Part shown: one piece after another, positions 36,338 to 59,229 of the stretch
Layout: each line of letters opens with the position of its first letter
How positions within the stretch are numbered: the first letter of the stretch is position 1
Source of the DNA: Candidatus Saccharimonadaceae bacterium
GTDB lineage: Bacteria; Eisenbacteria; RBG-16-71-46
Direction: 5' to 3'
Assembly (NCBI GenBank): GCA_035494735.1
Contig: DATJGS010000037.1
Span: 81,637-145,636, forward strand
Length of the DNA stretch: 64,000 bases
Position numbers and translations under genes: made by a program
The notes under the pieces: generated by a model
Told to the model about the DNA's origin: nothing
Database searches by the model: none
What the model saw: the letters and a program-made list of their open reading frames with translations, nothing else

Positions 36338-36362
36338 GGGGCCGGCCCGAGCGGCCGGCCCC
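36338..36362 (+). other. Perfect 10-bp GC hairpin between nosZ and nosB.
   Basis: GGGGCCGGCC-cgagc-GGCCGGCCCC; no T-tract. Confidence 0.5.
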
Positions 36363-47110: not shown

Positions 47111-47837
47111 GGTGCGGTCCTCGCAGGGCGACCCGCCGCGTCGCGCGCGGCACGGCGACGGAGCCGGCGCGGCGCGAACGCACGCCGGCCAGCTCCCGGC
47201 GCATGATGGGCCGCGTCGCCGAACGCCGCGCGACTTCACGGAATCCCGCGGCGCGGAACGACGCCGCGAGGCCGTGCCACACGAACGCGGCGGGCATGCG
47301 GTCCGCGGGATCGACGGGATAGCCTTCGAGGCGCGGCGCGCCCCGCTTCGCGGCGTACGCGCACGCCGCCTCGAGCAGCGCCACCGTCAGACGCCGGCCC
47401 CGCTGCGTGCGATCGATGAAGAAGCACGGCACGGACCACGTCGGCAGTTCGTCGACCGGCAGCAGAATGCGCGACGATTCGTAGCGCCGGTATGTGGCAC
47501 GGGGCGCAAGCGCCACCCAGCCGACGGCACGCCCCCCTTCGTATGCGAGCAGCCCGGGCGGATCGCCCTTCGCGACGATCTTCCGGAACGCGGTGCGATT
47601 GTTCGCGTGCTCGGCCTTCCACTCGGCCGCGGTGCGCCGTGGGAACATGCACCAGCATCCCGCGCACGCCCCGCGCGGCCCGAACAGCCGCACGAGATCG
47701 TCCCAGCGATCGGGCGTGAGCGGGTGGAACGTCCACGGCGTGCGCGCCGGACGCTTGCTCGCGGAGGCGCGCGCAAGGCCGCGTCTCGCGCCCGTGCGCG
47801 CGGCAGGCTTCGCTCCCCTCCTGCGCGTCGCGCTCAT
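47103..47837 (-). CDS. GNAT-family N-acetyltransferase embedded between moaD and moaE.
   Basis: CxGCWCM ... acetyl-CoA-binding fold; ATGA overlap with moaD and an 8-nt overlap with moaE. Confidence 0.7.
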   Translation of the reverse strand: MSATRRRGAKPAARTGARRGLARASASKRPARTPWTFHPLTPDRWDDLVRLFGPRGACAGCWCMFPRRTAAEWKAEHANNRTAFRKIVAKGDPPGLLAYEGGRAVGWVALAPRATYRRYESSRILLPVDELPTWSVPCFFIDRTQRGRRLTVALLEAACAYAAKRGAPRLEGYPVDPADRMPAAFVWHGLAASFRAAGFREVARRSATRPIMRRELAGVRSRRAGSVAVPRATRRVALRGPHRG

Positions 47838-48079
47838 CCGCCGCTCACCGGCGGCAGCAGCGCCAGCTCGGCGCCGGCCGCGAGCGGCGCCTCGGGTTTG
47901 ACCAGCCGCCCGTCGACCGCGAGCGCGAGATGCGCGACCAGCGCGTCGAGCCCCGGGTGCAGGCGCACGAGCGCGGCGAGCGCGTCGGCGACGCGACTCG
48001 ACTCGGGCAGATCGAGTCGCAGCGTGGACGCGCCCGCGCGTTCACGGGCCTGCGCGAAGAGGAGAACGGTGATGGTCAT
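47834..48079 (-). CDS. moaD: Molybdopterin synthase sulfur-carrier subunit (ends in GG).
   Basis: 81 aa; ubiquitin-like fold; C-terminal ...PPVSGG. Coordinates are +/-1 because of the local sequence/table discrepancy. Confidence 0.8.
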   Translation of the reverse strand: MTITVLLFAQARERAGASTLRLDLPESSRVADALAALVRLHPGLDALVAHLALAVDGRLVKPEAPLAAGAELALLPPVSGG

Positions 48080-48117
48080 GATGGACGCGTCAGCGACGCG
48101 CACACTATGCTGGCGTG

Positions 48118-49335
48118 ATGGACCATCAGAATCAAGCCTCCGACGATCCGGAACGTCCCGGGACGACGCCCGGCCCGCCGCCGGACGCGACGCACGAGAC
48201 CGCCCCCGGAGCACCGGACGCGGCGCCCGACGCGACGCATGACGCCGCCACGGGCGCGCCGGACGCGGCGCCGAACGCGCACGACGCCGGGTCCGACTTC
48301 GGCGCCCCCACGCCCCGCCTGCCCGACTTGCGCCCGGCGCTCATCGGGTGGCTCGCGTTCATCGCGGTCGCGGGCATCGCCGGCATCGCCATCGGCGCGC
48401 AGGAGCTCGCGCTCATGGTGGCGCTGGCCGGGCTGTTCGTGGCGGCGCAGGCCGCGGATCTCGATTCGCGCTGGACGCTGTTCTACTGGCTGCTCGGCGC
48501 GGCCGTGCCCGTCGGCGGTGCGCTCGCGTTCAGCGCGCTCACCACGCTGGCCAATCAATCGGCGCTGAGCGGCGCGCCGCGCGTGATCGCGATCGGCGTG
48601 TCGATCTTCGCGGCGCTGGTGTCGCTCCTGACCGCCGTGCGGCCGTTCGCCGACGAGCTGGTCTCGCTGCTGTTCCGCAGCGATGCGCCGACGCACACGC
48701 TGCGCCTGGCCGCGCGGCTCGTGCTGCTGACGTTCCTGTTCTCGATCCCCGGCTACTTCCTGGTGCCGGATCTCATGCAGAACATGCTCGACGACGCGAA
48801 GGGCTTCTTCGCCCGCGTGTCGCTCGGGAGCGAACTGATCGGCTACGTCGCGCTCGCGCTCGGCTCGGTCGGGTTCCTGGTGCGCCGCGGATTGCGCGAC
48901 GCGCTCGCGCGCCTCGGCGTGACGCGGCTGCCGCGCAGCCAGTGGTGGATCGTCGTGGCCGGCGTGGTGGCAATCATCGCGTTCAACAATCTCGCGGACT
49001 GGGCGCAGCACCGCTGGTTGCCCGCGGCGTGGGCGCACGACAGCGACATGAACAAGAAGCTGTCGCGCGGGCTCGGGCCCATGCGCGTGATCCTGCTCGG
49101 CCTCGCGGCCGGCATCGGCGAAGAGATCACGCTGCGCGGCGCGCTCCAGCCGCGGCTCGGCATCGTGCTCACGGCGCTGCTGTTCGCGTCGCTGCACGTC
49201 CAGTACTCGTGGTCGGGAATGATCGTGGTCGGTGTGATCGGGCTCGTGCTCGGTGTGATCCGGCGCCGCGCGAACACGACGGCGTCCATCGCCGTGCACA
49301 CGCTCTACGACATCGCGGCGGTGTTCGGAACGTAA
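48118..49335 (+). CDS. CPBP-family (CAAX) intramembrane metalloprotease.
   Basis: EExxxR, FxxxH and HxxxD motifs. The N-terminal approximately 70 aa are a repetitive D/A/P/T-rich low-complexity stretch, so the true start may be near 48330. Confidence 0.75.
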   Translation: MDHQNQASDDPERPGTTPGPPPDATHETAPGAPDAAPDATHDAATGAPDAAPNAHDAGSDFGAPTPRLPDLRPALIGWLAFIAVAGIAGIAIGAQELALMVALAGLFVAAQAADLDSRWTLFYWLLGAAVPVGGALAFSALTTLANQSALSGAPRVIAIGVSIFAALVSLLTAVRPFADELVSLLFRSDAPTHTLRLAARLVLLTFLFSIPGYFLVPDLMQNMLDDAKGFFARVSLGSELIGYVALALGSVGFLVRRGLRDALARLGVTRLPRSQWWIVVAGVVAIIAFNNLADWAQHRWLPAAWAHDSDMNKKLSRGLGPMRVILLGLAAGIGEEITLRGALQPRLGIVLTALLFASLHVQYSWSGMIVVGVIGLVLGVIRRRANTTASIAVHTLYDIAAVFGT

Positions 49336-49410
49336 CGGGCGTTCGCGACGTGGGACGCACGGCCGTCCGCGGCGCCGAACCATCGCGCGGCGCGGAGGCC
49401 GCGAAAGCGC

Positions 49411-50130
49411 CTAGCTCAGCGTCTCACCGGGGCGCAGCGCCACGACGTCCGCGGTGACACCGAAGCGCTTCAACTCCTCCTTCAGCGCGTCGGGCGTCCC
49501 GGTCAGCCCGGGAGACGTGCCGTGGTGCATGGGCACGATCCACTTGGGCTTGAGCATGCGCGCCGCGACCGCGGCTTCGCGCGGGCCCATCGTGTACAGA
49601 TCGCCGATCGGCAGCAGCACGATCTCGGGCGCGTACAGCTCGGCGATCAGCGCCATGTCCGGAAGCAGCCCGGTGTCGCCGGCGTGATAGATGCGCGTGC
49701 CGTCCTCCAGCGTGATGACGAAGCCGCACGGCTCGCCGCCGTAGACGACCTGGCCGCCGTCCTCGATGCCGGCCGAATGCGTGGCGTGCACCATCGTGAA
49801 CTTGAGCCCGCCCACCTCCTGCGTGCCGCCCTTGCCCATCGGCGCGACGCTGGGAACGCCTTTGCGCGTGAGGTAGAGACCCATCTCGTAGATGCACACG
49901 ACCGTGGGCTTGAACTTCTTGCCGAGCGTGACCGCGTCGGCGGCGTGATCGCCGTGGCCGTGCGAGATCGTCATGATGTCGATCTTGTCGAACGTCTTCA
50001 GCTCCTTCGGGCACGCCGGATTGCCCTCGATCCAGGGGTCGAGCAGCACGGTCTTGGCGCCGCGCGTGACCAGCTTGAACGTCGAATGGCCCAGCCAGGT
50101 CAGGGCGAAGCCGCGATTCAGGTTCGGCAT
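49411..50130 (-). CDS. MBL-fold metal-dependent hydrolase (UPF0173-like).
   Basis: HGHGDH motif. Confidence 0.85.
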   Translation of the reverse strand: MPNLNRGFALTWLGHSTFKLVTRGAKTVLLDPWIEGNPACPKELKTFDKIDIMTISHGHGDHAADAVTLGKKFKPTVVCIYEMGLYLTRKGVPSVAPMGKGGTQEVGGLKFTMVHATHSAGIEDGGQVVYGGEPCGFVITLEDGTRIYHAGDTGLLPDMALIAELYAPEIVLLPIGDLYTMGPREAAVAARMLKPKWIVPMHHGTSPGLTGTPDALKEELKRFGVTADVVALRPGETLS

Positions 50131-50192
50131 GTGGATCCCGTTCTCCCGAGGCGCCGCGCGGCGTGTGGCGCGCGGCGACGACGTCGTGTCGA

Positions 50193-51593
50193 TCAGCGCG
50201 CCGGGGCCGCGGCCTCGGCGTCCTTCAACTCTTCGAGGCGCGCCGTGAAGTGCCTGAGCACCGGCGCCTCGTACGTGATGCGCAGCCCCTTCATCTCGTT
50301 GCGCCGCCGGTACAGGTCGATCACCGATTCGCCGACGTAGCGCATGTGCTCGGTCGTGTACACGCGCCGCGGGATGGCGAGACGCACGAGTTCGAGCTGG
50401 GGGTACACCATGTCGCCGCGCGCGTCGCGGTGCGCGAACATCAGCGAGCCGACTTCGACCGAGCGGATGCCGAACTCACGATACAGCGCCACGACCAGAG
50501 CCTGCCCTGGATACTGTGACTGTGGCAGGTGCGCGAGGAAGCGTCGTGCGTCGAGGTACACGGCGTGTCCCCCGACCGGCTTCACGATCGGCACGCCCGC
50601 GCGATCGAGCTGGTCGCCGAGCGCGGCCACCTGGCCGATGCGGAACGCCAGGTAGTCTTCGTTCAGCACCTCGCGCAGGCCGCGCGCGATCGCTTCGAGG
50701 TCGCGCCCGGCGAGGCCGCCGTACGTCGGGAAACCCTCGACGAGGATCAACAGGTTCGTCACCCGCTCGGCCCACTCGGCGTTGTTGAGTGCGAGGAACC
50801 CGCCGATGTTCACGAGCCCGTCCTTCTTCGCGCTCATCGTGCAGCCGTCACCCAGCGCGAACGTCTCGCGCGCGATCTCGGCCACGGCCTTGTTCGCGTA
50901 GCCGGGCTCGCGCTGCTGGACGAACCAGCTGTTCTCGGCGAAGCGGCACGCGTCGAAGATCAGCGGGACGCCGTGGCGACTGCACACTTCGCGCACGGCG
51001 CGCATGTTCGCGATTGAGACAGGTTGTCCCCCACCTGAGTTGTTCGTGATGGTGATCATCACCATCGGCACCCGGGCCGCGCCGAGCTCACGGAGCGCGT
51101 TGTCGAGCTTGAGTGGGTCAAGATTGCCCTTGAACGGATGCTGGAGCGTCGGGTCCAGGCCTTCGTCGATGACCAGGTCCAGCGCTTCGGCGCCCTGGTG
51201 TTCGACGTTCGCCCGCGTCGTGTCGAAGTGAATGTTGTTCGGTACGACGTCGCCCTTCTTGAGGATGGTCGAGAACAGCAGGTTCTCCGCAACGCGGCCC
51301 TGGTGGGTCGGAATGACATGCTTGTAGCCAAAAATGTCCCGTACCGCGTCCTGGAAGTGAAAGAAGTTCCGGCTCCCGGCGTACGACTCGTCGCCCATCA
51401 TGAGCCCAGCCCACTGGTGGTCACTCATGGCCGAGGTGCCTGAGTCTGTGAGCAGGTCCACGTAGATGCTGTCCGCCGGGACCGCGAAGATATTGAGGCC
51501 CGCCTCGGTGATCAGCCGTTCACGCTCTTCGCGTGTCACACGGCGCAGCGGTTCGACGACCTTGATGCGGAAGGGCTCTGCGGGAAATCGCAT
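50193..51593 (-). CDS. Beta-eliminating lyase: tyrosine phenol-lyase/tryptophanase family.
   Basis: N-terminal PAEPFRIKVVEP, SDHQWAGLMMGDESYAGS and a PLP-lysine region, with high identity to known TPL/TnaA sequences recalled from memory. Confidence 0.9.
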   Translation of the reverse strand: MRFPAEPFRIKVVEPLRRVTREERERLITEAGLNIFAVPADSIYVDLLTDSGTSAMSDHQWAGLMMGDESYAGSRNFFHFQDAVRDIFGYKHVIPTHQGRVAENLLFSTILKKGDVVPNNIHFDTTRANVEHQGAEALDLVIDEGLDPTLQHPFKGNLDPLKLDNALRELGAARVPMVMITITNNSGGGQPVSIANMRAVREVCSRHGVPLIFDACRFAENSWFVQQREPGYANKAVAEIARETFALGDGCTMSAKKDGLVNIGGFLALNNAEWAERVTNLLILVEGFPTYGGLAGRDLEAIARGLREVLNEDYLAFRIGQVAALGDQLDRAGVPIVKPVGGHAVYLDARRFLAHLPQSQYPGQALVVALYREFGIRSVEVGSLMFAHRDARGDMVYPQLELVRLAIPRRVYTTEHMRYVGESVIDLYRRRNEMKGLRITYEAPVLRHFTARLEELKDAEAAAPAR

Positions 51594-52029
51594 GGGATCG
51601 GCAGTCTAGTCGGAGGCGACGCGGTGCGCGAGCATTTTAGGCATTGCAATCGAGGCGATGAGGCTCCTACTCTTGAGTCGTCCCCAGGAATCCTCCCCTC
51701 GCAACAGCAGCAGCGTAGGCTCGCCGAGCGCCGCCCCCCCGAGCGCATTCCGCGGTGTATCGCGGACGGGCCGCAACACCTCATCGAGAGCAGGGCGGAT
51801 GGACCGGAACTCGACTTTCGCTTCGCGTCGCGATGGCGTGCAACGCATGCGCTGTGGATCGGTTGGGCGTCTGTGGGATCGGGGGACTCCAACGCTCGGA
51901 TCGTGAAGCAGCGCAGTTTGAGCCGCGCTGGGGCGGCATAGGGGTCGGTGCCAGGCCGAAGTCGGCGCCGAGGCGAGCAGGGACTCGCACCTCGCGTGTG
52001 TCACCGCGAACGACCCAAGGTTGTGCGAA

Positions 52030-52060
52030 GGGCCGGTCGAGAGACCGGCCCTTTCGCGTT
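52030..52060 (+). terminator. Orphan intrinsic-terminator-like hairpin in a 600-bp spacer.
   Basis: Perfect 9-bp stem GGGCCGGTC-gaga-GACCGGCCC followed by TTTCGCGTTGGGGATTTTGG; no upstream plus-strand CDS. Confidence 0.55.
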
Positions 52061-52195
52061 GGGGATTTTGGCTGTCGAGCCAGATGCAAGCGACATTAGA
52101 ATCATGGCTCGCGGATTGGGCTGTCCATCGCATCGAGTCGTTGCCCCTGCACATCGGCTGCGCCGGCGTGCGTCCCGATCGCCGGTTGGAGGTGC

Positions 52196-55100
52196 GTGAT
52201 GACACGACCCTCGAGCGCCCTGTCGCGACTGATCGCGTTCGCCTTCATTCTTGTTGCCTGCCCGACGCTGGCACGGTCGGATTGCCCGCCGGGCACGCTC
52301 TTCCAAGATGGTGTGCCGTACGCCGCGGGACCCCAAGCACACGGAATCGTCACCGCCGATCTGAACGGCGACGGAATTCTCGACGTCGTCGTCGTCTCGA
52401 GCCTCGGCGTTCCGGGCAGTCCATCGGGCTCGATCGCCGTCTACCTCGGTCACGGATCGAATGGAACCGGCGACGGGACGTTTTCGACTCCCGCCTACTT
52501 CGCCGCGAACAACTATCCGACGGACGTCGCCGCCGCTGATCTCGACGGTGATGGGTACACAGACCTCGTCGTGGCTTGTGCATTCGCGGATGTCGTCATC
52601 ACGCTGAAGGGTAACGGGAACGGAACGTTTGCTCCGGCGGTTGCACACGCGACCGGGCACGTGCCGTTCGGCCTTCGCGTGGCCGACTTCGACGGCGACG
52701 GCGTGCCGGACATCGCGGTCACGAACAACAGCGCATCGAGCATCAGCGTGTTCGCGGGCGTGCGAACGGCGGGTGTCTTCGACGTGGGCCCCCGTCACGA
52801 CTACACCGTGGGCGCGGTGCCTCTGGGCCTCACGTCGGGCGACTTCAACGGCGACGGAATCCAGGATCTCGCCGTCGCCGCGTACAACCCGGGCGCCATC
52901 GTCGAGCTCGACGGCATCGCGCCGGGCGGCACGTTCGGCCCGGCCATCAATCATCCGATTGGAGCACATCCTTGGAACGTCGTCGCAACCGACGTGAATA
53001 TTGACGGCCACCCGGACTTGGTCGCCTCGACTGGGGACAACGTCGTCTGCACGCTGCTGGGTGCGCCGGGCGGCGGGTTCCTTTCTCCGCTCACCTCGAC
53101 CACGGCCGGTGTCACAACCGGAATCGTGATCGCCGACTTCGATCTCGACGGAGTCCTCGACGTCGCGCTGACGAATGTGAACAGCACGTCGGTCTCCGTT
53201 CTCCTCGGCAATCACGGAGGCTCGGGAGGCAACGGCACCTTTACGAGTGCTAGCTCCTCGGAAGTGGGCTCCCAGCCCATCGCGATCACGTCGGCTGACT
53301 TCAATGGTGACGGCCATCCCGATCTGGCGACGGCGACGTTCGCGAGCGGGCAGCTCGTCGTCTTGTTGTCGGGGTGCACGCTTCACACGCCGCCCTCGCT
53401 GATTGGCCAGTGGCAGGCGCGAGGGGTCCTCGTGACCCAAGCCAGTGGAGACCAGTTGTCGCCGTGCATCGCGGCCGACGACGCTGGAGGAACTTTCGTC
53501 GCGTGGTTGGACAGACGATCCGCGGTCCCGGGACAGCCGGGTCCTGGGATCTACGTCCAGCGTCTGACGGCGGCCGGCACGGTCGCGGCGGGATGGCCCG
53601 CCGGTGGACTGGCGGTCTCGCAAGGCGGCGGTGAAAGCGTCCTAAGCATCACTCAAGACACGGCGGGTGGGATCTTCCTGACCTGGCTCGACTCGATCAA
53701 CGGAGCGCGCGTCGTCCGGGTGACAGCGAGCGGGCAGCTCGCGCCCGGGTGGACCCTCGGAGGAATTCTCACGAGCAATCTGGGTGCCGGTGGATGCTCG
53801 TCTTGCCCCGACCCGCTCTTTGCGGGTGTCGAGTCCGTCGCGGACGGACTCGGCGGCGTGTTCGTTGCCTTTGCAGCGGCCCGATACATCGCGGTCGAGC
53901 ACGTGACTCCCGGAGGCTCGCTCGATCCGGCGTGGGGCACGGACGGCCTACTCTTCGGTCCTTCGAACAAGCCCCTGGGGAACTGTCACATCGCAACCGA
54001 CATGAATGGCGGTCTCTACCTCGTCTGGCTCGTGTTCAGTTACTCGTGTCTCATCGAATCACCGTTCACGTGCTTCAACACCTCGACCACGGAGCGACGG
54101 CATATTTCGATCGTGGGGGCAGTCGACCCGGCGTGGTCGGGATCCGAGGGCGCAATTCGACCGCGGATCGCGAGCGATGGCGCTGGAGGGGCGGTCGTCG
54201 TTCGATCCAATCTGCCGGCGCCGTACTCGGACTCATACGTCGTCCGCTATGGTCCCACAGGCTCGAAGATCTACGACGTGAACGAACACACGAACATCAC
54301 CGTCGCGGGCGAGATCATTCCGAAGCCCGACGGTCAGGGCGGCACATTGCTCCTCTGGCAGGCCTACTACGGCAAGGATTTCTACACGCTGAGGCTGGCA
54401 GCGAACGGCGCGGCACAGGGTGGGTGGCTCACACCCGGCGCGTCACTCGGAGGCTATCCCGCAGCGATCGACGACGCGGCGATCGCCCCGGACGGCACCG
54501 GTGGCGCCTGTTACGCGTGGGCCGATGGGCGGAACGCGCAATACGACGTTTACGCGACGCGCCTGACGCCGAGTGGCTCGCTGGCGCCGGGATGGACGGT
54601 GAACGGGGACCCGGTAGCCGACGGACTTGCGGATCAATCCCATGTCGCCATCGCCCGCGACATCGCCGGCTCCTTCGTCGTGTGCTGGCAGGACCATCGC
54701 AATGGCACGGACTACGATGTCTACGCTCAGCGCCTCACGCCCGACTCGCCGGTCGCGACGACGACGTCCTTGATCTCCGCGGACGCCACCCCGTCGAGCG
54801 TGACGATGTCCTGGCAGTCGAGTGGAGATCCGGTTGTCGGCGGCGTCGTGCAACGCCGGCAGGGCGGCTCGCCGTGGGCGGCCATCGGCTCCGTCAACAG
54901 CGACGGAACCGGGCGCATGCGCTTCGAAGACGCGAGCGTGGCGCCGGGAGCCCGCTACGCCTACCGACTCGGTTACCGCTCGGACGGCCAGCAACTGTTC
55001 ACGAGCGAGACGTGGGTGGACGTGCCGCTCGCGGCCGTGCTCTCACTCGAGGGCGTGAGACCGAATCCCGCCGTCGATCGGATGACCGTGAGCTTCTCGC

Positions 55101-55300
55101 TGGCCGACGCTTCGCCGGCGACGCTCGTGCTCGTCGACCTCGCGGGTCGCGCGATGCTGCGCCGCGACGTCGGAGCGATGGGGGTGGGGCGACATGTGCT
55201 CTCGCTCGACGTCGGGACGAGGCTCGCGCCCGGCATGTACTGGCTACGGCTCACCCAGGGCGGGCGCATGCTGCACGCGCGGGCGGTCGTGATTCGCTGA
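52196..55300 (+). CDS. Large secreted FG-GAP/VCBS-repeat protein with a T9SS-type C-terminal sorting domain.
   Basis: Signal peptide; repeated DLNGDG/DFDGDG FG-GAP calcium-binding units; C-terminal VRPNP...DLAGRAM...GMYWLRL tail; GC3 clearly lower than in neighbouring genes. Confidence 0.8.
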   Translation: MMTRPSSALSRLIAFAFILVACPTLARSDCPPGTLFQDGVPYAAGPQAHGIVTADLNGDGILDVVVVSSLGVPGSPSGSIAVYLGHGSNGTGDGTFSTPAYFAANNYPTDVAAADLDGDGYTDLVVACAFADVVITLKGNGNGTFAPAVAHATGHVPFGLRVADFDGDGVPDIAVTNNSASSISVFAGVRTAGVFDVGPRHDYTVGAVPLGLTSGDFNGDGIQDLAVAAYNPGAIVELDGIAPGGTFGPAINHPIGAHPWNVVATDVNIDGHPDLVASTGDNVVCTLLGAPGGGFLSPLTSTTAGVTTGIVIADFDLDGVLDVALTNVNSTSVSVLLGNHGGSGGNGTFTSASSSEVGSQPIAITSADFNGDGHPDLATATFASGQLVVLLSGCTLHTPPSLIGQWQARGVLVTQASGDQLSPCIAADDAGGTFVAWLDRRSAVPGQPGPGIYVQRLTAAGTVAAGWPAGGLAVSQGGGESVLSITQDTAGGIFLTWLDSINGARVVRVTASGQLAPGWTLGGILTSNLGAGGCSSCPDPLFAGVESVADGLGGVFVAFAAARYIAVEHVTPGGSLDPAWGTDGLLFGPSNKPLGNCHIATDMNGGLYLVWLVFSYSCLIESPFTCFNTSTTERRHISIVGAVDPAWSGSEGAIRPRIASDGAGGAVVVRSNLPAPYSDSYVVRYGPTGSKIYDVNEHTNITVAGEIIPKPDGQGGTLLLWQAYYGKDFYTLRLAANGAAQGGWLTPGASLGGYPAAIDDAAIAPDGTGGACYAWADGRNAQYDVYATRLTPSGSLAPGWTVNGDPVADGLADQSHVAIARDIAGSFVVCWQDHRNGTDYDVYAQRLTPDSPVATTTSLISADATPSSVTMSWQSSGDPVVGGVVQRRQGGSPWAAIGSVNSDGTGRMRFEDASVAPGARYAYRLGYRSDGQQLFTSETWVDVPLAAVLSLEGVRPNPAVDRMTVSFSLADASPATLVLVDLAGRAMLRRDVGAMGVGRHVLSLDVGTRLAPGMYWLRLTQGGRMLHARAVVIR

Positions 55301-55478
55301 CGGGGGCGGAGCCCCATCGCCTCAACACTGAGACCCGGTCGCGCCCATAGCAAGCGCCGCAGTCCTCAGGTGGCCCGGACACGCTATACTTCGTTCGGAA
55401 TCTTGCGCATCGCGCGCCTGGGTGACGCTGTCGGTGTCGCCTTGGCGTCCGACCCTCCACCCCCGGGCGCGGCCGACC

Positions 55479-56936
55479 GTGACCTTCACCACCGTCACTT
55501 TCATCCTGTTTCTCGTTGTGGTGTTCGCGCTCCACTGGTCCGCGCGCGACCGGCGGGTGCGCAACACCGTGCTGCTCGTCGGCAGCTACGTCTTCTATTC
55601 GTGGTGGGACTGGCGATTCAGCGGGCTGATGCTGGCTGCGAGCCTGATGGACTACGTGGCCGGCGTGTGGATGGACAGGGTCGGCGCGAGCCCGTGGCGG
55701 AAGCGGATCCTGCTGATGAGCATGGTCGGGAACCTCGGCATGCTCGGCCTCTTCAAGTACTTCAACTTCTTCGCGGCCAACCTTCAGGCCCTCGCCGGCG
55801 CGCTCGGACTCCATCTCGACGCGGTGACCCTCCACGTCGTGCTACCGGCGGGCATCAGCTTCTACACGTTCCAGACGATGAGCTACACGATCGAGATCTA
55901 TCGCGGCCAGCTCAAACCCACGCGCGACCTGCTCAGCTACCTCACGTTCGTGTCCTTCTTCCCGCACCTGGTGGCCGGGCCGATCATGCGGGCGCACAAC
56001 TTGCTGCCCCAGATCCAGGCCGAGCGAACGTTCGATTACGAACTCGCCCGGGACGGTTGCCGGCAGATGCTGTGGGGCTTCTTCAAGAAGATCGTGCTCG
56101 CCGACTCACTCGCGATCGTCGTCGATCGTTATTACGCGCAGCCGGCCAGCTGGGGCGGGCCGCAGCTCGCGTTCGCGACGTTGTGCTTTGCGTTCCAGAT
56201 CTACTGCGACTTCTCGGCGTACTCCGACATGGCGAGCGGCACCGCGAAGCTGTTCGGCGTCAGGCTCATTCGCAACTTCGCGTATCCGTACTTCAGCCAG
56301 AGCATCCAGGAATTCTGGCGGCGCTGGCACATCTCGCTGTCCACGTGGTTTCGCGACTACGTGTTCATTCCGCTCGGCGGCAGTCGCAGTTCCGGGCCGC
56401 GCACCGCGTGGAACGCCATGCTCACGTTCCTGCTCAGCGGCTTCTGGCACGGCGCCTCGTGGAATTTCTTGTTGTGGGGCGGCATCAATGGAGCGGCGGT
56501 GACGCCAACCGTCCTGCGCGGCGAAGCGCACCGCATCACGCGCACGGACGTGCCGGGCGGCGAGCGGAACATTCCAGACGCCGGCACTCTGGCGCGCATC
56601 CTGGGGACGTTCGCCGTCACGTGCCTGGCGTGGGTGTTCTTCCGAGCACGCACGCTGTCGGATGCCGTTCTGATCCTGAAACGCGTTCTGACCGGACTGT
56701 TCGATGTCGCCGACTTCCACGCTCTGCTGGGCGTCGTGTCGGCCGAAAAGAAGACGCTCGCGGTCCTGGTCGCGTTCGTCGTCGTCGAATGGCTGGCCCG
56801 CCGCCACGAGCACCCGCTGCGCGAGATCGGCCGCTGGAACCCGCCGTTGCGCTGGGTCACGTACACCGCGCTGATCTGGGGCACGCTGTATCTCGCGCCC
56901 TACGTTCCCGGCCACTTCATCTACTTCCAGTTCTGA
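55479..56936 (+). CDS. MBOAT-family membrane-bound O-acyltransferase (AlgI/DltB-like).
   Basis: Polytopic, with a conserved His in the ...FWHGASWNF region; GTG start assumed. Confidence 0.85.
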   Translation: MTFTTVTFILFLVVVFALHWSARDRRVRNTVLLVGSYVFYSWWDWRFSGLMLAASLMDYVAGVWMDRVGASPWRKRILLMSMVGNLGMLGLFKYFNFFAANLQALAGALGLHLDAVTLHVVLPAGISFYTFQTMSYTIEIYRGQLKPTRDLLSYLTFVSFFPHLVAGPIMRAHNLLPQIQAERTFDYELARDGCRQMLWGFFKKIVLADSLAIVVDRYYAQPASWGGPQLAFATLCFAFQIYCDFSAYSDMASGTAKLFGVRLIRNFAYPYFSQSIQEFWRRWHISLSTWFRDYVFIPLGGSRSSGPRTAWNAMLTFLLSGFWHGASWNFLLWGGINGAAVTPTVLRGEAHRITRTDVPGGERNIPDAGTLARILGTFAVTCLAWVFFRARTLSDAVLILKRVLTGLFDVADFHALLGVVSAEKKTLAVLVAFVVVEWLARRHEHPLREIGRWNPPLRWVTYTALIWGTLYLAPYVPGHFIYFQF

Positions 56937-56941
56937 ACGGG

Positions 56942-57898
56942 ATGAAGCGCTTCCTCGGTCGCCTCGCCGCGTTCGTCGCGATTCAGATCGTGATCGCCGC
57001 TGCCGTGTTCGCGCTCTATCACCCGAGCCCGCAGAACATCATGGCGAGCACGATCGACAAGCATCGGCTGCTCGACGAGACGCCGTCGCCCCGGCTCGTC
57101 CTGATCGGCGGCTCGAGCGTGCTGTTTGGAACCATCTCCGACACGCTGGCCACGCGGCTTCCGTACCACCCCGTCAACATGAGCATCGCCGCGGGGCTCG
57201 GCGCCGGCTTCATGCTCAACGAGGCGCGCGACGGGCTCCGGCCCGGCGATGTTGCGTTGGTGTCGATCGAATACGAGGAGTTCGGCATCACCGGACGACC
57301 CGAGACCGTGCTGCGACTCTTGTCGTCGCGGCCGCAAAGCGTGCGGTACGTGCCGCTCGACTACTGGCCAGCGATCCTCGACTTCGGCCTGTCGTACACC
57401 GGGATCATCGTGCGGTCATCGGTCGGGGGTTTGCACGGCCGCCAGGAACCGCTGATCCCACCGAACGTGCGCTTCGCCCTGAACACGTTTGGCGACGACT
57501 CGCTGCGGCCGCCGACTCCCAAGGTGCCGCCGGTCGGAATCGCCGTCTACGCGGATGGACGGCTCCCGTCGCACTTCGGTGCGGTGCTCGAGCAGATCAA
57601 TCGGTTCGCCGACTTCTGCAGAGCCCGAGGCGTGCGCGCTTATTTCATCCATCCGCCCGTGCCCGAAACGCGTTGGCGACTGCACGCGCCGGAGATCGCG
57701 CTGGCCGAGTCGGTGTTCGTGAAGCGCATGCGGATGCCGCTGCTCGACACGCAGGACGGCGTCATCTTCCCCGACCGCCTGTTCTACGACACCGAGTATC
57801 ACCTGACTGCCGAGGGCGCGGCACTGCGCACGCAGATGCTCGTGAAGGAGCTCGGCTCGCGCCTGGCCGCGGATGGAGTGACGGCTTCCGGTCATTGA
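56942..57898 (+). CDS. Membrane-anchored accessory protein for the MBOAT (AlgJ/AlgX/DltD-like, SGNH-like).
   Basis: N-terminal TM helix and a periplasmic domain; gene order after MBOAT is typical of glycan O-acylation pairs. Confidence 0.55.
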   Translation: MKRFLGRLAAFVAIQIVIAAAVFALYHPSPQNIMASTIDKHRLLDETPSPRLVLIGGSSVLFGTISDTLATRLPYHPVNMSIAAGLGAGFMLNEARDGLRPGDVALVSIEYEEFGITGRPETVLRLLSSRPQSVRYVPLDYWPAILDFGLSYTGIIVRSSVGGLHGRQEPLIPPNVRFALNTFGDDSLRPPTPKVPPVGIAVYADGRLPSHFGAVLEQINRFADFCRARGVRAYFIHPPVPETRWRLHAPEIALAESVFVKRMRMPLLDTQDGVIFPDRLFYDTEYHLTAEGAALRTQMLVKELGSRLAADGVTASGH

Positions 57899-57957
57899 TT
57901 CGCGAGCAGAACCATCTTCCTACGACCGCGGAAGGGTCCGGGTCCGGGTCCGGCTCC

Positions 57958-58623
57958 CTAATTCAGCTCCCCACCTCTCGGGTCCTCGCGCTGTGGCCCT
58001 TCGCGGAGTCGGCGCTCGACCATGTCGCGCACGCGGTGGCCGCGGTCGATCACGCTGTCCAGGGCGAGCAGTTCGAGCTTGCGGCGCGCGTTGACGGCGA
58101 GGCCCATGCACACCGCGTTGACGAGCGCTTCGTACGTGAGCCCGTCGCCGAATGGCGGCGTCGGGCGCACTTCGCCGGCGCGCGCCTCCGCGTTTGCCCA
58201 GCGCGCGCACACGTCGAGCAGCGCGCGGCGCTCGATCTGGACGAGCGGATCGTCCTCGGTCAGGGGATCGCACGGCAGGATGCGCACGGGTGCGGCGCGG
58301 TACGGGTACTCGCGCACCGGGCGCTCGAAGCGCACGCGCGAGACGCCGAGCAACTTCAGGTCGTAGCAGTCGTCGGGCAGCCAGCGCACGTCCTCGAAAC
58401 GCGCCAGGCAGCCGAGTCGGTAGAACTCGGGGCTGCCGTGGTAATCGCGCTCCCAGCCGGGCTTCAGCATGGCCATGGCGATGAGACGCTCGCCGGACAG
58501 CGCGTCGCGCACCATCGCCCGGTAGCGCAATTCGAAGATGTGGAGCGGCACGACCGTGTGCGGGAACAGGACGAAGTTCGGCAGGGGAAAGATCGGCACC
58601 GGTGCCTTCGGCGGTTCGATCAT
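57958..58623 (-). CDS. LON N-terminal substrate-binding domain protein.
   Basis: LON_N pattern PLFPL...VLFP. Confidence 0.75.
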   Translation of the reverse strand: MIEPPKAPVPIFPLPNFVLFPHTVVPLHIFELRYRAMVRDALSGERLIAMAMLKPGWERDYHGSPEFYRLGCLARFEDVRWLPDDCYDLKLLGVSRVRFERPVREYPYRAAPVRILPCDPLTEDDPLVQIERRALLDVCARWANAEARAGEVRPTPPFGDGLTYEALVNAVCMGLAVNARRKLELLALDSVIDRGHRVRDMVERRLREGPQREDPRGGELN

Positions 58624-59151: not shown

Positions 59152-59229
59152 GCATCCTCCGAAAGCGGTGCCGGGCCCCTCTCGGGGCCCGGCGTCGAGG
59201 GGCGGCCGACCGCCCCGGAACGAACCGAA

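Follow-up and report, generated by a model that had tools for sequence, protein, structure and literature searches.

Hfq/ProQ-type small RNAs (sRNAs), the intrinsic terminators of bacterial sRNA genes, the 4.5S/SRP RNA and the tnaC leader of Enterobacteria are the described systems closest to the element analyzed here. Like the tnaC leader, it is a conserved element approximately 250 nt from a tryptophanase gene (tnaA). Unlike tnaC, it lies on the opposite strand, contains no conserved ORF or Trp codon and is present without tnaA, and the tnaA gene is apparently leaderless at this locus. Eisenbacteria are an uncultivated soil phylum for which no described non-coding RNA was found in one literature search or in Rfam 15; the literature search, on Eisenbacteria with ncRNA terms, returned no paper that mentions the phylum.

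Sequence comparison leads us to conclude that the region very probably holds the plus-strand gene for a stand-alone small non-coding RNA that spans approximately positions 51848 to 52060 of the window (the whole 64-kb stretch of DNA that was analyzed). A small RNA was one of the readings offered in the original prediction for this DNA, and it is now supported by a structured unit with these approximate limits, covariation, strand-specific G-U pairs, a co-oriented terminator and occurrence in more than 25 loci.

Locus, coding potential and distribution

The element lies in the divergent intergenic spacer (51594-52198) between tnaA (50193-51593, minus strand), a beta-eliminating lyase gene of the tryptophanase/tyrosine phenol-lyase family, and an FG-GAP repeat lipoprotein gene (52199-55300, plus strand), which starts with the ATG at 52199 and encodes a lipoprotein-type signal peptide. 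An 842-aa ORF without a Pfam match (55370-57898, plus strand) and a LON_substr_bdg gene (57958-58623, minus strand) follow. An exact look-up of the window tnaA protein gave no record. The nearest upstream plus-strand gene is Rce1-like, as identified by synteny, and ends approximately 2.5 kb away, in agreement with the distance of more than 2 kb given originally. Equally, the statement that the spacer holds no convincing ORF stands: coding periodicity is absent from all of its frames, and GC3 is 0.55-0.72 in the candidate ORFs versus 0.80-0.87 in the flanking genes. The spacer had also been described as lower in GC. At 65.8% it is indeed below the window mean of 70.8% (11th percentile), but the drop is mild, and the adjacent tnaA (65.7%) and FG-GAP segment (66.2%) have nearly the same GC content.

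A 19-codon micro-ORF on the plus strand, MRCGSVGRLWDRGTPTLGS, was considered and rejected, because its frame is broken by 1-nt indels in loci carrying the short form of the RNA and because the base before its UG covaries instead with the 3' side of P1, the hairpin that forms the core of the RNA. Its start position varies (A/G/C) across homologs, and it is not preserved as a small protein gene. No conserved ORF is present on either strand of the RNA unit.

The scan with Rfam and Infernal that had been proposed alongside the original prediction matched no known family, in the window or in eight variant loci. With Rfam 15, the whole window gave no match at gathering thresholds, and a cmscan of the region at E <= 10 gave asX1 as its best match (18.2 bits versus a gathering score of 70, E = 8.2). 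Further chance matches were a snoRNA and PtaRNA1 at 22 bits, and no match of relevance was obtained for the eight variant loci at E <= 5. Neither a tRNA nor a tmRNA was detected by ARAGORN. The RNA matches no catalogued family (Rfam 15) and represents a new RNA family. With more than 25 members, a strand, a structure and three length classes, the family is usable for RNA catalogues and for soil metatranscriptomes.

Related loci were fetched via lyase homologues (L081-L084 and L108-L116). A genome scan with the lyase protein placed the lineage of the window in Candidatus Eisenbacteria and had L001 as its best locus (90% amino-acid identity), and comparison of L001 with the window demonstrated that positions 51848-52062 are far better conserved than the remaining spacer, with an identical run of approximately 65 nt. 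Among 80 tnaA-derived genome loci searched with nhmmer and a covariance model, the element was present in L001 only, and five Eisenbacteria tnaA loci (L011, L012, L017, L018 and L023) have no element within +/- 6 kb. When metagenomes were scanned with a 20-mer of the conserved block, 23 contigs were retrieved, 22 of them true loci; the same 20-mer had 0 matches in viral contigs. Further diverged copies were recovered by the covariance model (L108, L109/L110, L115 and L116). These searches identified more than 25 independent copies of the RNA in Eisenbacteria MAGs and soil metagenome contigs, with one copy per locus in the same syntenic place except in two palindromic contigs. The latter, L091 and L106, carry two inverted RNA copies plus fragments of the flanking genes at the contig ends, and are most likely assembly artifacts.

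Two other groups of loci deviate in their content. In L111-L114, where tnaA is 82% identical, the gap between the LON-domain gene and tnaA measures 83 nt and a search with the covariance model detects no RNA copy, so that these genomes either can do without the RNA at this position or carry it at another one. Locus L115 (GCA_035496475.1, DATJEP010000086.1) has a near-consensus copy (96 bits) adjoining a tnaA whose protein the source assigns to Candidatus Udaeobacter (Verrucomicrobiota). The flanking genes are otherwise Eisenbacteria-like, so this label may stem from mis-binning or gene transfer.

Conservation within the spacer is concentrated in the RNA. Between the window and the L001 clade (tnaA 90% identical at the amino-acid level), identity is 98.5% in P1 (51848-51915), approximately 80% in the RNA outside P1, 65-68% in the remaining spacer and 58-62% at tnaA third codon positions. 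In the more than 25 loci from which the RNA was recovered, the neighboring LON-domain protein is 46-75% identical.

Architecture, covariation and strand of the RNA unit

The whole candidate small RNA gene, in its long form, is approximately 213 nt in length (51848-52060, plus strand) and has a consensus fold of P1, P2, P3 and terminator. P1 is a 68-nt irregular hairpin (51848-51915, plus strand) and the conserved core of the family. P2 is a small hairpin, GCCGC-N6-GCGGC (51922-51937, plus strand), found in the RNAalifold consensus of nine long-form sequences, and P3 is a three-way branched domain (51942-52016, plus strand) whose closing helix, GGGUC/GACCC, encloses P3a, P3b and P3c. Homology to all relatives extends from P1 to 52060-52066, where it ends; the 3' end of the candidate RNA lies in the tail after the terminator, and the position of its 5' end may be off by anything from a few to some tens of nucleotides. 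A promoter scan upstream of P1 found no sigma-70-like site, so the 5' end is placed solely by the onset of conservation; the promoter type of this phylum may differ. Clades vary in the sequence upstream of P1, and below P1 there is one additional base pair that covaries. In the window clade a small hairpin, C(G/A)CG-AUGG-CGUG, is found at 51829-51840, approximately 8 nt upstream of P1, and in L088, L093, L097, L099 and L107 a GC hairpin with a U-rich stretch is located 10-20 nt upstream. These hairpins could either belong to the transcript or serve the neighboring gene as a terminator or insulator, which adds to the uncertainty of the 5' end.

The basal helix of P1, UGCGCUGU/GCAGCGCA, is invariant. 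Above it, tandem G-A pairs could form in a purine-rich 4x4 internal loop (GGAU/UGAA); then come a variable, covarying middle helix and an invariant apex, GAUC-GGGG-GACUCC. Because most copies were recovered by matching an exact 20-mer, the apex appears more invariant than it otherwise would; the apical 14-mer GAUCGGGGGACUCC is still identical in all RNA copies, including those found by the covariance model only. An internal near-duplication is also observed in P1 (51855-51902), consisting of CUGUGGAUCGG and CUGUGGGAUCGG, as are three GGAUCG motifs (GATC in DNA). In the long form, the loop of P2 varies (GCUGGG, ACUGGG or CGACAG) while its stem is kept, and P2 is also present in L108. P3a differs between clades in sequence and length with its pairing kept (CG/GC/AU, columns 107-129), and P3c shows GC to AU double changes (columns 162-172).

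Three length forms share P1. The long form (approximately 205-230 nt) continues with P2, the three-way P3 and the terminator hairpin, and is found in the window, L001, L081-84, L086/L104, L087, L089, L094, L097, L102, L107 and L108. The short form (approximately 110 nt) has P1, a U-rich linker of approximately 11 nt (e.g., CGUUUCAAG), a different GC hairpin and a T-containing tail; it is found in L088, L090, L093/L098, L099, L100 and L106. The minimal form (approximately 75 nt; L085, L092 and L096/L103) passes from P1 directly into AUCUUUUUCG-like U-runs. L109 is an intermediate with P1, one hairpin and a terminator. We propose that transcription would begin just upstream of P1, from a promoter of the RNA's own, and would run through the variable accessory domain (P2 and the three-way P3) to the GC-rich hairpin at 52025-52057, which would act as a Rho-independent terminator. 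P1, near base-for-base constant, would be the functional module, joined to a modular 3' part.

Covariation analysis in related genomes, another check that had been suggested with the original prediction, revealed compensatory changes and a conserved structure. In an alignment of 13 long-form sequences 97.9% of cells are paired, compared with 33-44% when the partners are slid by 1-3 columns, and the covariation score is 0.140 versus 0.078 in shuffles (0/500). For P1, 96.9% of cells in a 20-sequence alignment are paired versus 36-49% when slid, and five pairs carry double changes, a number equalled in 1/500 shuffles; this alignment was made with the covariance model, and its numbers therefore lean slightly towards structure. 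The covariation within P1 is modest because its sequence hardly varies.

The RNA unit is on the plus strand of the window. Folding energies alone could not assign the strand, since the 233-nt conserved part folds better than shuffles in both orientations (z = -2.65 for the plus strand and -3.75 for the minus strand). The assignment is instead based on four observations. P1 contains G-U pairs, and shows one-sided changes from G-C to G-U or from U-A to U-G, all of which become A-C mismatches on the minus strand. The P1 covariance model scores 95-99 bits on the window plus strand versus 16.7 bits on the opposite strand. The remaining two, the G-U pairs of the terminator stems and the T-richness downstream of them, are described below.

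Terminator hairpin and gene neighborhood

The RNA ends in an intrinsic-terminator-like hairpin at 52025-52057 (plus strand, with one bulge), followed by the tail TTTCGCGTTGGGG to approximately 52064. At its core, a GAGA loop caps a perfect 11-bp stem (AAGGGCCGGTC-GAGA-GACCGGCCCTT, 52028-52053), which exceeds the perfect 9-bp stem first noted and is the longest perfect hairpin of the 64-kb window. The folding energy of the terminator hairpin is -21.9 kcal/mol. The T-rich tail also noted at the outset is poor in the window copy, with 4 T in the first 8 positions of TTTCGCGTTGGGG, and the terminator was not flagged by a consensus terminator scan of this copy; the homologs are T-richer, with 5-8 T in 10-12 nt and better tails such as CTTCTTTTTG in L097 and CTTCTTCTTT in L107. 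Across 18 copies, 81 T are found in the 10 nt downstream of the hairpins versus 45 A in the 10 nt upstream. The terminator stems contain 18 G-U pairs on the window plus strand, and 16/18 are stabler on that strand. Their pairs occur as AU, GC, CG and GU variants across loci, with three pairs changed on both sides. Measured from the start of P1, the GC hairpin is at +78 in the short forms and at +166 to +195 in the long forms, on a constant strand.

The hairpin by itself is not decisive, since perfect stems of at least 9 bp are only about 2 sd commoner in the window than in Markov simulations (17 versus 9.3 +/- 4.0); its significance comes from the comparative evidence. This modest excess, and the fold of the whole 605-nt spacer, which is no better than shuffles (z = +0.41), speak for a decayed gene remnant or neutral spacer, with a GC-rich hairpin formed by chance at a genomic GC content of 70%. 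That explanation is extremely improbable given the 98.5% conservation of P1 where synonymous sites are conserved at approximately 60%, the compensatory changes, and the persistence of the element in more than 25 loci at the divergence of the LON-domain neighbor given above.

Other perfect intergenic GC hairpins of 9-10 bp are found in the window at 59170-59193, 36338-36362 and 50152-50177. The hairpin at 59170 lies between the Sod_Fe and AhpC genes and has a GAGA loop on its transcribed (minus) strand; none of the three has a clear U-tract. This suggests that gene-end hairpins of this genome are generally without long U-tails. Since these other gene-end hairpins of a 70% GC window also have no clear U-tract, termination may depend less on the U-tract here than in E. 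coli.

In the usual gene order, the Sod_Fe, AhpC and LON_substr_bdg genes are on one strand and the RNA is on the other, convergent with the LON-domain gene; beyond the RNA, and divergent from it, are tnaA and a gene for a metallo-beta-lactamase-fold protein. The window departs from this order by a lineage-specific insertion of approximately 5.9 kb (52067-57950), outside the RNA, which contains the FG-GAP gene and the 842-aa ORF and separates the RNA from the LON_substr_bdg gene. The insertion is evident from a break in collinearity with L081, which shares 94% DNA identity with window positions 47155-52066 and resumes homology near 57960, placing the insertion exactly downstream of the RNA tail. 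No integrase or repeats were noticed at its borders. Elsewhere, the same spot holds PMT_2/TMEM260-like glycosyltransferase genes (L082, L083 and L102) or an unknown gene (L103), and in many lineages no gene at all. The site just past the terminator thus looks like a variable insertion spot that has received different genes in different lineages.

The second reading offered in the original prediction was a leader attenuator or riboswitch for the FG-GAP gene, whose start codon does lie, as stated there, approximately 140 nt past the hairpin on the same strand. Put generally, the RNA would be a cis-regulatory leader of the next plus-strand gene, with the hairpin as a conditional terminator. Same-strand genes are also found beyond the RNA in L082, L083 and L102 (the PMT_2/TMEM260-like gene, approximately 25-90 nt after the terminator) and in L103 (the unknown gene, of 442 aa, approximately 130 nt after the minimal form), so read-through could feed those genes. 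However, such genes, where present, come from unrelated families, and the FG-GAP gene and 842-aa ORF are specific to the window, their proteins having no tblastn match in the 27 related loci tested. In most relatives, among them L081, L084, L087, L088, L090 and L093, and likewise L099, L100, L108, L109 and L116, it is the 3' end of the convergent LON-domain gene that faces the terminator, which leaves nothing downstream to regulate. The terminator is moreover an isolated helix in the consensus folds, with no anti-terminator pairing evident there. We therefore regard a cis-regulatory leader as very improbable. The FG-GAP gene is a recent insertion by the 3' end of the RNA and not its regulatory target, which corrects a plausible mis-annotation of the RNA as a riboswitch of the adjacent gene.

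An independent sRNA gene is also the reading that fits the varied surroundings of the unit. L097 and L107 have the whole block from P1 to the terminator in the reverse orientation with respect to the LON-domain gene. The RNA is also kept in loci without tnaA (L089, L092 and L096/L103) and in loci with other genes in place of the LON-domain gene (L102 and L115). In some loci its convergent neighbor is a DUF1330 gene rather than the LON-domain gene. Block inversion and changing neighbors are as expected of an independent gene and not of a UTR element.

The tnaA gene has upstream features of its own. A -10-like TAGACT (TAGAAT in L087) is located 9 nt before the tnaA ATG in all tnaA loci (window 51594-51608, minus strand), and in short-form loci a -35-like TTGTCG or TTGTGG is found 17 nt upstream. 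The gene has no Shine-Dalgarno sequence, and its mRNA is probably leaderless or near-leaderless. Two conserved blocks upstream of tnaA, at 51626-51651 and 51669-51679, read GATTGCAATGSCTAAAATGCTCGCGC and CTCAAGAGTAG on the minus strand; they are common to the window and L001 clades and partly to L087, and may be tnaA regulatory sites.

Some observations connect the RNA block itself to the minus strand. In relatives the hairpin is approximately 5-70 nt past the LON-domain stop codon, the block is 255-470 nt upstream of tnaA, the DNA of P1 has up to three GATC sites, and the window has a minus-strand ORF, MPPQRGSNC...ERWSPPIP, with a Trp followed by prolines. The hairpin might then be a (possibly bidirectional) terminator of the minus-strand Sod-AhpC-LON operon, and the block a DNA-level regulatory region or 5' leader of tnaA, possibly TnaC-like. 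This arrangement is very improbable on several grounds. A TnaC-like leader peptide on the minus strand was rejected as a candidate, since codon 7 of the ORF is a TAA stop in L001, L082 and L083 and the lengths of the downstream indels are not divisible by three. On the minus strand the G-U pairs turn into A-C mismatches and the covariance score drops from 99 to 17 bits, and the hairpins are T-richer on the plus side. The unit persists without tnaA and, in L097 and L107, is reversed as a whole, the TAGACT motif implies a short or absent tnaA leader, and the third GATC site is not conserved across loci. The hairpin could also stop the convergent LON-domain operon, ancestrally or in relatives; this cannot apply in the window, where 5.9 kb intervene.

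Possible roles and comparison with known RNAs

The near-invariance of the 68-nt P1 hairpin points to a specific macromolecular partner. Within the sRNA explanation, the role that we favor, tentatively and at somewhat less than even confidence, is that P1 serves as a protein-binding platform in a regulatory or RNP RNA. It is favored because both strands of P1 and the tandem G-A loop are conserved beyond the needs of pairing, and because there is almost no conserved single-stranded sequence. A classical base-pairing sRNA with a single-stranded seed is a less probable but still serious candidate, and other roles account for the remainder. P1 has no conserved single-stranded seed; its conserved nucleotides are almost all paired or in the internal loop. 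A 9-nt pairing of P1 with the start of tnaA (mRNA CCGAUCCCA with sRNA UGGGAUCGG) was tried and rejected as a conserved interaction, being limited to the window and L001 clades; the complementarity of UGGGAUCGG to tnaA is absent in L086, L093 and L099. Given the conserved TAGACT 9 nt before the tnaA ATG, CCGAUCCCA is probably promoter DNA of a leaderless mRNA.

A further, rather unlikely extension of the protein-binding role is that P1 forms the core of an unrecognized class of structured, RNP-forming RNA specific to the Eisenbacteria lineage. Such an RNA would consist of an invariant recognition hairpin, with its tandem G-A internal loop, to which exchangeable 3' modules are attached: none at all, just a terminator, or P2 with the three-way P3. 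Its partner could be encoded nearby, for example by the PUA-like LON substrate-binding-domain protein that is its neighbor in most loci. If true, the role of the RNA would go beyond antisense regulation.

P1 resembles the 4.5S/SRP RNA in overall form: each is one long, irregular hairpin whose purine-rich internal loops are conserved and whose apex does not vary. The 8-mer GAAGCAGC of P1 is also found in E. coli 4.5S RNA. Unlike the 4.5S/SRP RNA, P1 has no GNRA tetraloop, its internal loops are arranged differently, and the Rfam SRP models do not match it even at E <= 10. The absence of the RNA from L111-L114 would also be unexpected for an essential RNA at a fixed locus.

With Hfq/ProQ-type sRNAs the family shares a length of 75-230 nt, an intergenic location, a terminator of its own and a conserved 5' module, as well as the U-rich linker after P1 in the short forms and modular 3' ends. 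It differs from them in that the conserved part is an almost fully paired hairpin instead of a single-stranded seed, and in that no conserved target complementarity was found, the match to the tnaA start being clade-specific. Compared with typical intrinsic terminators, the U-tract of the window copy is short and interrupted (TTTCGCGTT). The hairpin is nonetheless like the intrinsic terminators of bacterial sRNA genes in its GC-rich, perfect 3' stem-loop, T-containing tail and covarying stem, and in its conserved position relative to the RNA body. The family adds one more lineage-restricted bacterial sRNA with a putative intrinsic terminator and challenges no current concept.
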